The notes beneath the pieces were generated by a model. It ran no database searches. It was not told the DNA's origin and saw nothing but the letters and a program-made list of their open reading frames with translations. A stretch of 63,900 nt of DNA, filler included, from Globobulimina sp. (lineage: Eukaryota), in assembly GCA_003354225.1 (NCBI GenBank). It is 51 parts of 51 records of this genome, joined end to end, with 100 filler letters (N's around TTAATTAATTAA, not from the genome) between each part and the next. Parts side by side here need not be neighbours in the genome. Positions count along the whole stretch, not along the records: positions 43,937 to 45,090 come from PIVH01022160.1; 50 more parts are not named here. One strand, 5' to 3'. Position 1 is the first letter of the stretch. Every line of letters starts with the position of its first letter. This document shows positions 31,387 to 45,090 of this stretch, in pieces. The translations under genes and the position numbers were made by a program.

Positions 31387-32541
31387 ACCCTCGGATAACA
31401 GCACGGAACCATGGTGTCTGAAAGTGATCGAGCCGTCGTATCGTAAAAATAAAACTGGCGGCACGGCTAAAAATGATACGCGTTTTGGCAGTTTCACGGA
31501 GGGCGAAGTGGATGAAAAGTTTCAATTTGTTGTGCGTTTCTGGGCTAAAAACAGATATGAATCGTTGCGGATACATTATGTAGATTTGACGGGTACTCCT
31601 TCGGCGAATTTGTATAATTCAGAAGCATATATTTACACTACGCAATGTTATATGGATCGAGCCTGTGGTTTGTGTGGCTATTACAATGGCGAAGCAACGG
31701 ATGACTTTACATATCGGATAGATTACAACAATGCCAGTGATGTATCCGATACTACGCAGTTTGCGGAAATCAGCACAGAGGATGTCGACGATCCGCATAA
31801 TTATGTATCATGGACCAATGCGCAAGAATTTGTGGTAAAATGGGTCAACGCTGATCTATCAGCACAATTACGACCCAATTCTGACACAGTTAAGCAATAA
31901 AAACACATCATACAAACTCTCTCAATTTGTACGTGTACGTATACAAATATACTATAAAGTGTTACGATGCCGCTGCGTATCTAAATTGTACGAGTTTCCC
32001 CTCCCACAATCCACACTTATGTCCAAATTATTGTACCTGCATCAACACCGCAGACAAAATCGTCGAAGTACCCACCAACAACAACGGCAGCAATGTCGGC
32101 ACTTCCTGTCTCTTCGACTTATGCGCTTGTATGGGTGGTCGGACCTGTCCAGACTTGGAAAAACAATACAAAATCTCCAAACATTTCAGCCAGTTGACCC
32201 CACCGCGAACCTGGACCACTTGCGCAGAAATCCTAGCAAATGGCGACGAAAACGAATTGGAAGAGTTCTTCCAATATATCGGCGAAGCGAAGTGTTACCA
32301 CGATGCTGGAGAGTCGCAAGTGTGTTGTTCGGCGAGTGCCTGCCCCAAACCATATACACACGACGGTATCACTGAATATCTCTACCTACCGCCATCATGC
32401 AAGGAAATGACGCCTACTCGCTCCCCTTCCCCTGCACCTACGCAGTCACCCATACCCCGACCCACTCGCTCCCCGTCCCCGGCACCTACCACCGCACCTA
32501 TACCTGCACCGACCTCCTCTCCCACATCAGGCCCAACTAAC
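31387..32541 (+). CDS. von Willebrand D-domain protein with PT/PS mucin-like tail (spliced, partial)
   Basis: ACGLCGYYNGEATDDF, CLFDLCAC and PTRSPSPAPT repeats. Confidence 0.8.
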
Positions 32542-41426: not shown

Positions 41427-42581
41427 AACCACTGGATGCCGCCGCCTTCGGGCAGGGGCGTCACGCCGACGTCCCTCACAGTGATATCATCGCCGACTCG
41501 CAACCTATCACTGAGCACCTCCTTCGGCGCAGAGCCCAATGCCGAGGCTAAAACATGCGAATAAATGTATAATTTATGAAACGGACTCAAGTTGGTATCG
41601 TAGCGGTCGTTGTCGTAGATATTGGCATCAAGGCGACGCAATTGTTTGGCGGGGAAACCGTCCCAAGACTCTAAGTGCGAGAAACTTAATATTCGACATG
41701 TAATCGGTGAGCGTTTGCAGCCGGTTAGCAATAAGGAACGAAACGAGTCATTGCTAATGGAATACGGTAATAAGAGGATATCGGCGCGGAAGGAATCGCT
41801 GCGTTCGAATAAATTGCCGCGGCAGATCTCGAACGTGCGTTCAGTGCCAGGCTTGAATAAACTTTCGCGATGAACGCGTTTGATGACAGATTTGGTGGCT
41901 GACATTTCTACGGCGAAGTGAATGCCGTCGGCGTTGCACGAACGGATTATGCCTTGATAGTTGTCGCGTTTTTTGATGTTGTTTTGTTTCAAAGGGATGA
42001 AGCAATGCACCACGTCGCCCACGGCGAAGGTGGTGGCTTTCGACTGAGATGCGGAGGCTTTCTCGGCTATGGTCTGTGGGTTGTGAGTGTACGCAAAATC
42101 GCATGAGAAATATAGGGAAACTAAATACCATTTTGATGGATGGGATTTGTTCCACTAATAAATATTTTCGGTTTTGATAGCCGTTTTTGATCAAAGCCAT
42201 GAGGTTTTGAGTGGCGAAATGGAAGAAGTTTTTGTTTTGTTCGATGCCAAACACGCGGCGTAAGTTGGGATACGAGAGGAAGGTCTGTAAGGCCATGGTG
42301 GCTGTACCGCATTGTAAGTCGTGTAAGGAAGCGGCGGCCGAAGCGTTTAAATGGTTGCGGTCTAATAATTGAGTCACGGATGATGTGTATAATTCGATGG
42401 ACTGTGAGGTGGAAGAGGCGGTACTGAATGGCGAGGATTTTTGTAGTTTGCTTCTGTTTTTTGCGGGCGATTTTTTTTGGTTTTTTTTGGGTGTTTTGTT
42501 CTGGTTTATTTGCGATAATGAATGGACTTTGAAGCCATACAAAAATGCGTTTGGGTTGGAATTTGATGATGATGCAATTAA
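41427..42581 (-). CDS. Degenerate DOT1-like class I methyltransferase domain protein (spliced)
   Basis: LLDRNHLNASAAASLHDLQCGTATMALQTFLSYPNLRRVFGIE; FEICRGNLF..ADILLL. Confidence 0.45.
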
Positions 42582-42681: not shown

Positions 42682-43835
42682 TTCATATTATTATTCCAAA
42701 TGCTATTTAATTGTCCTTTCATTGCCGTCTTTGTATTTAATATCGTTCCAATTATCCAATTCCTTCCACTTTGACTTTCCGATACAATTTGAAGCAATCC
42801 ATCAATTTCACTCATATTAAAGTAAGAAAATAATCCATCAGCAATCCAAATTGTATCATAATCTTTTTTAAATCCATTACGTAATAAAACCTGAATCCAT
42901 TTATTATCTCGGAAATCAACACATAAACTCTTCACATTCTCTCTTTTCATAACCTTACATTTATTCACCAATATATCATCTCTATATTTAATAATATCTT
43001 CCAAATCCAATTCAAATATATTCACGTCATCCATATCCAAACATGCCATACGATATGGCCTTGAATCACAACCAACCCCCATAAAAACCACTTGTTTCTT
43101 CTTACCATTTCCAAATTCATTCATAGCTTTTTCAATTCTGTCATCAATCCATTTTGTTCTAAATACAATATATTTTAATAAATCTTTATTATATCCATTC
43201 TCATCATGCCCAGCACCAAATTCCATACTCATACTTATCTGCTTCAAATATTCAAAACCAACTGTACCAGCAAATATTTTTGCAAAATCATCACGCAACT
43301 CACCATTTTCCTTTTTGCTTTCAATGGCTCGACCTGCAGCCATGAACAATGATGTCTTGTCCAACGGAGATATTGTTTCATTTTTCTTTTCCTCCAATAA
43401 ATTATTACTGTTTGCTAAGTTCGAAAGCTCCTCAAACCATCCTAGTTTTTTAGCAAACTCAATAACTCCATCATCACATTTTCCCTGCAGAAAATAATCG
43501 CGATGTTGCTCGCTCAATGCGTTTTTTGCCGCATATTGCATATTAATTAATAATCTCGGACATGAACTGGGAACTTTATGTATCAACCCAGCGAATGGGC
43601 GCACTTTCAAAGATGTGCCCATAATAATTAACATATCACAGTTACCAAAATCCGTAGATAATGATTTGAAAAAATTATGCGGCAGTCCTTCACCAAAAAA
43701 TACAACATCAGGCTTAACCACACCGTCGCATTGATCATTTTTGCATATTGGTACCTCAGAATTCATTATTTTGGGAGTAAAATATTTTGCATCATACTTT
43801 TTTCTGCATTTTAGACACGTTCCCGTTCTGTAATG
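42682..43835 (-). CDS. Class I sirtuin fused to LCM/TIGR00027-like SAM methyltransferase (both ends truncated)
   Basis: CLKC..CKNDQC, KPDVVFFGEGLP, GTSLKVRPFA, PRLLIN; then TSLFMAAGRAIES, RTKWIDD, QVVFMGVGCDSRPYR, IFELD, WIADGL. Confidence 0.9.
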
Positions 43836-43936: not shown

Positions 43937-45090
43937 CTGTTCCATTCATCGAAAGACAATTGCAGGAAATGTGGCCGTGTTGTTTGCAAACAATGTCTAA
44001 AATATAAAATCAAAGATGTACGCAATATATGCGCAGAATGTTATAAATCAAAAGACAACGAAAACAGAAACAAAAACAAAAACATAAGTCCATTATCTAT
44101 AGAAAAAACCAACATCTATGCTCAATATGAAGATATGAAAAATAATCCATATTTATCTGAAGATTCACTAAAACAATACCAACGACAATTTAATCTGCCA
44201 ATGGCAATGCATAAACCAAGTCTCTTATCCGACACATCCGTGCCTGTTCCACAAAGTCTATTAGATTTCACCACTGATATCCCATTGCCTGGCAGTAAGG
44301 CGCCCTCTCCACACATTATCTCACCGCTATTGAAAGAGGATGACGACGATCAACGTTTTAAATATCAAAACCCAAACAAAAAACGTGCCTCCTTCACCCG
44401 TGAATTTCGTGAGAGGAAACTGTCAGATCATCAGCGTAAATCGAGTCAAAGTGTTGGCAGTATTGGACTGTCCAATGCATCGCATAAATCTCCAAAGTGT
44501 GTCAATGTAAAAAGGAAAAGTATCACTGTTATCAAATGGATTGCGGATGAAATATTTGATATTGATGAGAAATGTATGAAATTAGTAGAAGAGGCTTGTT
44601 ATTCGCAAGCAAAGATCAACAATACACAAGCGATGATTATCCGTTTGGATGGGTATAGTTTTGGGATCTTTACTGCTAAAATGAAGAAACCGTTTGATAA
44701 ACGTTTTCATTCCGCAATGGTGTATACGGCATGTGATTTGTTGCGCGAATTCGATGCGTATACCGTCTTTGTGCAAAGCGATGAGATTTTGTTAATTTAT
44801 CCAAGCTCACATCATCAAAGTAAGGCAAATTATTTATTTGCTGGGAAAATTGCTAAAATATTGTCCATTGTGTCTTCGTTTGCGAGCATGCGATTTATTC
44901 GCCATTTGCAAAGGGAATATTTGCATTTGGTGGATAAGGATGAAAATGTACAGAATTGCTTTGCGAGTTTCAATGGGAAATGTTTTAATATCCCGGATGA
45001 GAATGAAATATTTAATTACATCATATGGAGATTGAAGAAGAATGTCCGCGGATATCATAAGAAAATATTGACTGTAGATAATGAGTTTTG
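43937..45090 (+). CDS. FYVE-like zinc finger plus Thg1-like (tRNA-His guanylyltransferase) domain
   Basis: Open from contig start: NCRKCGRVVCKQC..ICAECY; then IIRLDG.SF..FT..KPFD, QSDEI, IFNYIIWR. Confidence 0.85.

Follow-up and report, generated by a model that had tools for sequence, protein, structure and literature searches.

The 63,900-nucleotide stretch of DNA analyzed here (the window) comes from Globobulimina sp. (GenBank assembly GCA_003354225.1). It includes a contig, PIVH01022160.1 at positions 43937 to 45090, in which an initial annotation had read a FYVE-like zinc finger fused in frame to a Thg1-like 3′-5′ nucleotidyltransferase. Is this fusion a real gene and, if so, what might its product do? 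To our knowledge, no polymerases other than Thg1-like enzymes synthesize RNA in the 3′-5′ direction. Little is settled about what they do in eukaryotes apart from maturing tRNA-His and editing mitochondrial tRNAs; one of them, DdiTLP4 of Dictyostelium, is essential in a role still to be defined. Judged by sequence comparison, the locus encodes a genuine, conserved, and lineage-restricted variant of the Thg1-like proteins (TLPs), with a FYVE-type finger that is without the signature for PI3P (phosphatidylinositol 3-phosphate) binding and with a remodeled substrate-facing side. We refer to it as FYVE-TLP.

The window is made of 51 contigs of 1154 to 1156 bp each, sorted by length with spacers between them (N...TTAATTAATTAA...N), and adjacency in the window is not adjacency in the genome. 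The contigs are short and unrelated, so the window is uninformative for synteny. The source assembly is AT-rich, eukaryotic, and fragmented. The contig of interest (43937..45090, plus strand, 1154 bp) is an internal gene fragment of 384 codons with both ends open. Its frame +1 is free of stops from 43937 across all 384 codons (protein P0001), and each of the other five frames has 16 to 36 stops. The chance of a 384-codon open frame at the base composition of the contig (36% G+C) is ~1.6e-13. The frame is indeed open for 66 codons upstream of the start in the open reading frame track, as had been claimed; that start is the ATG at 44135. Since the frame runs open through both ends of the contig, the ends of P0001 are set by the contig and not by biology. 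Judged from relatives, the full protein has ~840 to 940 aa, and the contig holds only its middle. Therefore, the initial description of the domains stands for the fusion but needed correction on its extent, the Thg1 domain also being cut at the 3′ end of the contig. A tblastn search of the window with five longer relatives (see below) matched only contig 43937-45090, and no other contig had a piece of the gene. The best explanation is that the contig is the central piece of a nuclear gene from a foraminifer-like eukaryote.

We searched for relatives with a HMMER pass over 1.84 billion representatives, which gave 3219 Thg1-family matches at E ≤1e-3. Only four of these reached E ≤1e-30: P0002 (458 aa), P0003 (894 aa), P0004 (841 aa), and the fragment P0005 (203 aa). 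P0152 and P0153 (937 aa each) came from a further search, restricted to longer proteins. P0002 is labeled Bolivina argentea, a foraminifer, and is 54% identical to P0001 over 100% of the query, and P0003 is 48% identical to P0001 (BLASTP). P0004 is labeled Elphidium margaritaceum, also a foraminifer, and has an MMETSP label, which we take to be that of a transcriptome project. The five longer relatives (P0002, P0003, P0004, P0152, and P0153; 458 to 937 aa) have the same order of parts, namely a finger, a linker with the same conserved islands, and a Thg1 domain, which in four of the five is followed by a tail of ~330 aa. A search for the same fusion elsewhere had been proposed with the annotation, and it was found in the Bolivina argentea and Elphidium margaritaceum relatives.

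DNA from other sequencing runs bridges the same parts. A single 984-nt contig of run X1, which is possibly the source sample, covers 44006-44989; it starts within the finger and reaches the Thg1 domain. Run X5, from a separate study, has contigs over 43937-44343 (finger and linker) and 44345-44816 (linker and Thg1 domain) at >99% identity. One 1397-nt contig of run X7, 90 to 95% alike, covers all of 43937 to 45090 and adds 71 nt at the 5′ side and 208 nt at the 3′ side. A 1590-nt contig of run X6 extends 751 nt beyond 45090. Therefore, the linker-spanning DNA asked for in the annotation exists, in the X1 and X7 contigs. An assembly chimera or gene-prediction artifact, which would have drawn the finger and the Thg1 domain from different genes, could be suspected of a contig of only 1154 bp in a highly fragmented assembly, the more so with a window finger that by itself is below the Pfam threshold. 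However, the junctions are crossed by single contigs of other runs, and the arrangement of parts, conserved linker motifs included, recurs in the five longer relatives, which come from separate sources. We therefore dismiss a chimera as exceedingly improbable. The in-frame fusion is confirmed as genuine and conserved.

How widespread is it? Among the best 150 of the 3219 Thg1-family representatives, all 150 had a Thg1 match and three had a FYVE match, all three from the FYVE-TLP family. The seven FYVE-TLP sequences (including P0005) group as one clade (support 1.0) in a tree built from 145 Thg1 domains, and the stem of this clade is long, at 0.79 substitutions per site. The midpoint root of this tree falls beside the family, and we draw no sister group from it. 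The named near neighbors are Amoebozoa only (Arcella, Clydonella, and Nematostelium). By these labels, FYVE-TLP has been seen so far in foraminifera only, with two of the five longer relatives labeled as such. Rarity of a FYVE and Thg1 combination outside foraminifera is indicated but not proven, because the test of breadth was the best 150 of 3219 representatives and InterPro architectures were outside its scope. A profile search with 150 TLPs in a word-indexed protein collection scored 5 proteins among 8000 candidates, too few to gauge how common the combination is. The ESM Atlas gave no usable match for FYVE-TLP, and no relative was confirmed among 303 pattern matches in JGI metagenome contigs or 200 in IMG/VR viral contigs. 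In the literature searched, we found no paper on Thg1 or a Thg1-like protein with a FYVE domain and none on Thg1 in foraminifera or Rhizaria that describes such a gene. The architecture had not been recognized in the initial annotation, and we likewise did not find it described.

The catalytic part is a Thg1-like (TLP) palm domain at 44576..45090 (plus strand), cut at the 3′ end of the contig and placed by Pfam, by its match to 4kgk, and by an orthologue model. The Pfam Thg1 profile (PF04446) matched residues 214 to 353 of P0001 at 89.9 bits (cutoff 29.2; E 1.7e-25). The catalytic and nucleotide-binding motifs, all on the plus strand, are MKLVEE (44576-44593), RLDG (44642-44653), KPFD (44687-44698), QSDE (44774-44785), and GKIAKI (44843-44860). 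By sequence, the nearest solved structure is that of the Bacillus thuringiensis Thg1-like protein (BtTLP; 4KGK, E 2.7e-9), and no solved structure of a bona fide Thg1 was matched at E ≤1. The fold was compared on the orthologue P0003 rather than on the window fragment. An AlphaFold2 model of P0003 has the Thg1-like domain at ~330-575, with a predicted local distance difference test score (pLDDT) mostly >90. Foldseek ordered the matches to this model as BtTLP (E ~1e-10), MaTLP, and Thg1. VIA-align superposed model residues 341-547 on 4kgk_D 15-239 with a Z score of 19.3 and a root mean square deviation of 2.5 Å over 188 residues, and unrelated folds scored Z ≤5.5.

We audited conserved columns in the family against 81 and then 138 non-family representatives, with residue equivalences taken from our own sequence alignments. 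Kept in the FYVE-TLP family (window numbering) are K215, E218, R236, D238, G239, K251, P252, D254, S281, D282, E283, G303, K307, F345, W364, and R365. The three catalytic carboxylates (D29, D76, and E77) correspond to D238, D282, and E283 and are invariant in 7/7 family sequences, so the RLDG and QSDE carboxylates are intact, as the annotation had it. K44, S75, and the KPxD loop, which have roles in the activation step (PMC12632743), correspond to K251, P252, D254, and S281 and are also invariant in the family. Of the residues for the triphosphate of the nucleoside triphosphate (NTP), R27 and K95 are kept as R236 and K307, and the R130 column has Lys in 5/7, Arg in 1/7, and Asn in 1/7 family members; Lys retains the positive charge. 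In BtTLP, the triphosphate of the incoming NTP is held by R28 and K99′; the carboxylates are D30, D75, and E76, and roles have been assigned to S74, E12, and R147 as well (PMC3701042). The kept window residues correspond to BtTLP E12, R28, D30, S74-E76, K99, and R147. Together with the modeled orthologue, these equivalences show a predicted TLP fold, a two-metal site, and most of the residues that bind the activating nucleotide and the incoming one. Because Asp150 and Asn154 of the active-site helix are absent across the family, FYVE-TLP is filed by its alignment as a divergent TLP and not a typical one.

The predicted C-terminal two thirds of a FYVE-type zinc finger occupy 43937..44050 (plus strand), with the Cys pairs CRKC, CKQC, and CAEC (six Cys) on the contig and the first CxxC off it. 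Pfam FYVE (PF01363) matched residues 4-38 of P0001 at 19.7 bits (E 9e-4), over profile positions 22-64 of 67. The coverage is partial because the first Cys pair precedes the contig start. Thus, the Pfam scan proposed for the 43937 frame bore out the Thg1 half at once, but the FYVE half fell below its cutoff of 27.8 bits in the window and exceeded it in three of the five longer relatives. These have fuller fingers, scoring 35.1 (P0002), 31.8 (P0003), and 39.6 (P0004) bits. P0152 has a predicted start inside the finger and scored 23.8 bits; the N terminus of P0153 is truncated or miscalled, and this protein had no FYVE match, but its last two Cys pairs are still there. Four CxxC pairs (eight Cys) are found in P0002 and P0004. 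The loose end of a run contig at 43943 extends the frame upstream as SSTFAKKTLF (hand translation), which agrees with the finger of the relatives there. As a separate observation, the third Cys pair of P0003 (residues 44-60) is C-K-Q-Y-C, with three residues between the Cys where CxxC is found elsewhere, and this finger has the lowest-confidence fold. A RING finger was also considered, on matches of the fragment to RNF4 (E 0.005 to 0.9), and was rejected because FYVE profiles and solved FYVE domains are matched by the complete fingers of the relatives.

Does this finger bind PI3P? Classical FYVE domains have the motifs WxxD, R+HHC+xCG, and RVC, and FYVE-like domains without them, such as that of Rubicon, are described as binding no PI(3)P (PMC7431699). 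In an alignment to the FYVE domain of ZFYVE16 (3T7L), WVPD is replaced by WMPH and RRHHCR by GKDNCR; the window has SKDNCR, the replacement that the annotation had pointed out, and the relatives agree. The window and four of the five longer relatives have [SG]KDNCR in place of R(R/K)HHCR, and the predicted start of P0153 omits the patch. In the relatives, WxxD has become W[LM]P[YH], with the Trp kept and His or Tyr in place of Asp, and the third motif is RNIC, KVC, or RVC. Because the signature motifs are missing, PI3P binding by the finger appears unlikely, and targeting to PI3P membranes is likewise the less likely reading of its sequence. By analogy with the Rubicon domain, the finger probably has a ligand other than PI3P.

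What, then, might FYVE-TLP do? The annotation had inferred a reverse polymerase redirected to a membrane, a partner protein, or a non-tRNA substrate, and redirection of this kind is still an inference from the sequence. Our preferred explanation, to which we give slightly more than even weight, is a still-active 3′-5′ nucleotidyltransferase with altered and probably noncanonical recognition of its RNA substrate, tethered by a protein- or membrane-binding finger. As predicted from the full-length relatives, the order of parts would be a non-PI3P FYVE-type finger, a disordered linker with short motifs, the TLP catalytic domain, and a disordered tail of ~330 aa. The enzyme would activate an RNA 5′ end with ATP or GTP and then add a nucleotide to it in a templated, 3′-5′ manner. 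Substrate gating and recognition would be changed, probably away from the standard tRNA mode, because the gatekeeper Asp150, the 5′-phosphate-contacting Asn154 (MaTLP N137), and the anticodon-reading helical subdomain are lost. The finger and the disordered arms would most likely be tethers to a partner protein or a compartment rather than a PI3P sensor.

Several findings weigh against an active enzyme of this kind. The near-invariant FDxR is FNGK in the window (44969..44980, plus strand; DdiThg1 D128 and R130, BtTLP R131). At the Asp (D128), the window has N346 and the family has N/D/N/N/N/N/S, with D only in Bolivina, versus D in 134/138 non-family representatives. At the Arg (R130), the window has K348 and the family has K/K/K/K/R/K/N, versus R in 135/138. 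D128 and R130 are called critical for catalysis (PMC12632743). The active-site helix, WRLKKNVRGY (45026..45055, plus strand; typically WRxx(x)DxxRN in TLPs), keeps Arg147 as R365 but is without Asp150 and Asn154. The D150 column is never acidic in the family, versus D or E in 132/138 (96%) of the non-family representatives, and the N154 column is without N in the six long members, versus N in 133/138 (96%). The register of the helix differs by one position between two alignments. One places N369 at D150, G372 at MaTLP R136, and Y373 at N154; the other places K368 at D150, R371 as a kept Arg, and G372 at N154. Whichever register is used, none of the six long members has the acidic residue or the Asn at these columns. 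MaTLP R136 and N137 are placed at the RN dyad by alignment, and in the MaTLP-tRNA complex R136 contacts the 5′-terminal G2 and the template C72 and N137 contacts the alpha-phosphate (PMC4820378). Starting just downstream of the helix, the family has a 32-column gap in an alignment with the 25 nearest TLPs, which amounts to deletion of ~32 residues of the helical subdomain, and its beta-hairpin is ~8 residues shorter. The losses from the subdomain and hairpin could mean lost RNA binding rather than a new substrate. Finally, the finger fold is predicted only at a pLDDT of ~40 to 75 in the P0003 and P0002 models (50 to 75 in one of the two), because the alignment is shallow. The annotation had noted FDxR to FNGK and WRQ to WRL, and the alteration goes deeper than that, with Asp150 and Asn154 lost and the helical subdomain deleted. 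The Arg column of GGR is also changed, to Lys in the family (K304 in the window) versus Arg in 108/138 non-family representatives.

Taken together, the loss of Asp150 and Asn154 in all members, the D128N and R130K changes, the ~32 deleted residues with the shortened beta-hairpin, and the long clade stem are what might be expected of a pseudoenzyme. In this main rival explanation, the Thg1-like domain no longer adds nucleotides and is a nucleotide- or RNA-binding module in a large scaffold of zinc finger and disordered arms. We consider it unlikely, though to be taken seriously. Across ~50% divergence, the six long members all keep the three carboxylates, K44, P45, D47, S75, R27, K95, and R147, which is not expected of a dead enzyme. 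Moreover, the substitutions at D150 and N154 are of a kind that is tolerated or even activating in tested enzymes. D150 is described as a negative gatekeeper of adenylylation that is D or E in all Thg1 and TLP enzymes studied in a 2025 preprint except DdiTLP2; replacing it in DdiThg1 raised adenylylation on a Watson-Crick substrate 10- to 40-fold, and N154A was tolerated in yeast Thg1 (all PMC12632743). Therefore, the D150 and N154 losses suggest altered gating and not certain death of the enzyme.

Variation within the gene also bears on the pseudoenzyme. In runs X6 and X7 the gene occurs as a variant, ~93% alike, from which 30 nt have been deleted in frame at 44473-44502; this part of the linker is absent from the Bolivina orthologue too. 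One variant-bearing run shares its organism label with near-identical runs, so there are two diverged alleles, copies, or strains. Counts cover the 36 differences listed, with 16 further places outside the count. Of these, 22 are synonymous and 14 are nonsynonymous. The finger and linker have 6 synonymous versus 10 nonsynonymous differences, and the Thg1 part has 16 versus 4. This synonymous excess in the Thg1 part argues against a pseudoenzyme and, at the level of codon changes, shows the catalytic part to be under purifying selection.

A different possibility is an ordinary tRNA enzyme with decorations, which would repair tRNA 5′ ends as TLPs do or add G-1 to tRNA-His, the finger and tails only regulating or localizing it. 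All TLPs tested repair 5′-truncated tRNA in vitro, save DdiTLP2 (PMC12632743), and the nearest solved structures are those of tRNA-repairing TLPs. In MaTLP, contact with the tRNA elbow during repair is made by the beta-hairpin, and deletion of the hairpin leaves 5 to 13% activity; the relatives retain the conserved Arg of the hairpin, a region that lies beyond the window contig. However, bona fide Thg1 is defined by a HINNLYN motif and a KPND loop (PMC12632743). FYVE-TLP is without HINNLYN, has KPFD rather than KPND, and scores best with TLPs; on these motifs and scores it is not a bona fide Thg1 of the tRNA-His G-1 addition type. By our reading of the alignments, the MaTLP segment with F174 and N179 falls within the gap, and R188 has another residue in its place; F174, N179, and R188 together are deduced to be the anticodon-reading site of the Thg1 mode. 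The Asn that contacts the substrate is lost as well. Known roles of eukaryotic TLPs are mitochondrial tRNA-His maturation, mitochondrial tRNA 5′-editing, and the essential cytosolic role of DdiTLP4 (PMC6471195). Retarian (foraminiferal and radiolarian) mitochondrial genomes are reported to be without tRNA genes (PMC10127745), which leaves mitochondrial tRNA 5′-editing, the best-known task of eukaryotic TLPs, without a mitochondrially encoded substrate in foraminifera, and the N termini of the relatives open directly with the finger and have, by our reading, no obvious presequence. For these two reasons a mitochondrial editing role is unlikely, and we think an ordinary tRNA enzyme distinctly improbable overall.

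The finger and the Thg1-like domain are joined by a low-complexity linker of ~167 aa (44051..44551, plus strand), placed by family alignments and by a pLDDT <50 over the equivalent part of the P0003 and P0002 models. In the family, the linker has ~170 to 250 aa, is predicted to be disordered, and is poorly conserved outside islands. From the family alignments, the conserved islands in the window, all on the plus strand, are NNPYLSE (44141-44161), VPVPxSLLDxTTDIPLP...ISPLLKED (44240-44341), RKSSQSVGSIG (44435-44467), and KRKSITVIKW (44510-44539). The C-terminal tails are off the window contig; in the relatives, they are disordered and span P0003 598-893, P0004 598-840, P0152 599-936, and P0153 658-936. 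The tails have one to three copies of a motif, Y-x-T-M-[LIVM]-[LIVM]-H, that is present in 0/147 other proteins compared, as well as the shared motifs KR[KT]SLP, [KR]RYSKY, and NPNY. A terminal helix, S[AT]K[DE]RI...NARLQ, is modeled with a pLDDT of 80 to 92. We take the tail motifs to resemble YxxM or Yxx-hydrophobic and NPxY sorting motifs or SH2-type motifs.

A bolder form of our preferred explanation, which we regard as rather doubtful, goes further. FYVE-TLP might be a dedicated 3′-5′ RNA polymerase of foraminifera that has dropped the fidelity gate (Asp150) and the tRNA-reading parts. Its non-PI3P finger and trafficking-type tail motifs, namely the repeated Y-x-T-M motif and NPNY, would station it, for example, at vesicles or in the pseudopodial transport network, and there it would lengthen or mend the 5′ ends of non-tRNA RNAs. 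Were this true, it would be the first natural 3′-5′ polymerase with a defined non-tRNA and spatially restricted role. In any case, FYVE-TLP is a natural experiment, in which a core kept under selection is without the gatekeeper Asp150, the 5′-phosphate Asn, and the anticodon-reading segment. This core is paired with a targeting-type zinc finger, and the lineage has no tRNA genes in its mitochondria. An active FYVE-TLP would offer a direct handle on the non-tRNA substrates of reverse polymerization and a second natural test, after DdiTLP2, of the gatekeeper model of Asp150. If inactive, it shows scaffold reuse of the Thg1 fold.

Two observations concern the rest of the window. The preceding contig, at 42682-43766 on the minus strand, encodes the C-terminal part of a Sir2-family deacetylase (PF02146, 50.5 bits) in frame with a leucine carboxyl methyltransferase domain (PF04072, 113.5 bits). 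The open frame is a second unusual fusion and is likewise cut by a contig end. The G+C content of the window contigs ranges from 0.25 to 0.47, and the richest (such as 31387-32541 and 41427-42581, both ~0.47) may derive from another organism.

How does FYVE-TLP compare with known systems? At its finger, it has in P0002 and P0004 the eight-Cys cross-brace pattern of FYVE domains such as those of ZFYVE16/endofin (3T7L), RUFY1 (2YW8), and EEA1 (1HYI). Solved FYVE domains match FYVE-TLP fingers by sequence, but the PI3P motifs differ in the basic patch and WxxD, with RVC partly kept. Other TLPs also have additional parts. P0017 (693 aa) is a fusion with an N-terminal domain of the tyrosine phosphatase family (PF13350, 28.7 bits versus a cutoff of 22.2), and P0007 (492 aa) has an extra N-terminal part with a weak NUDIX match below cutoff; neither has a FYVE finger. 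P0076 (564 aa), a TLP of Andalucia godoyi with an extra N-terminal part, is named after mimivirus R259 by its source.

With eukaryotic Thg1 (human 3OTB/7CV1, Candida 3WBZ, and yeast 5XOX), FYVE-TLP has in common the superfamily, fold, and metal site (Z scores of 17.4 to 18.8 for the P0003 model). However, it is without HINNLYN and the anticodon-reading segment and has KPFD for KPND, and identity in the structural alignments is 13 to 19%. The bacterial and archaeal TLPs BtTLP (PDB 4KGK/4KGM) and MaTLP (PDB 5AXK-5AXN) have the same fold as the P0003 model (Z scores of 19.3 and 18.8; root mean square deviation of 2.3 to 2.5 Å), the same three carboxylates, and a KPFD loop with the TLP-type aromatic residue. 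BtTLP R28 and K99 are the same residues as window R236 and K307, but R131 is not the same as K348. Unlike BtTLP and MaTLP, FYVE-TLP is without Asp150, Asn154 (MaTLP N137), and ~32 residues of the helical subdomain, has FNGK for FDxR and a shorter hairpin, and has its core in a chain of 840 to 940 aa with a zinc finger and long disordered arms.

The Dictyostelium (Ddi) enzymes are compared here by their published descriptions. DdiTLP2, with R187 at the Asp150 position, and FYVE-TLP are both natural exceptions to an acidic residue 150, but DdiTLP2 is also without K44 and P45, which FYVE-TLP keeps. DdiTLP4 is essential and cytosolic and acts on non-tRNA RNA in vitro (PMC6471195). As described, neither DdiTLP2 nor DdiTLP4 has a zinc finger, unlike FYVE-TLP. 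DdiTLP4 and FYVE-TLP are both diverged eukaryotic TLP paralogues, and FYVE-TLP is likewise a candidate for a non-tRNA role.

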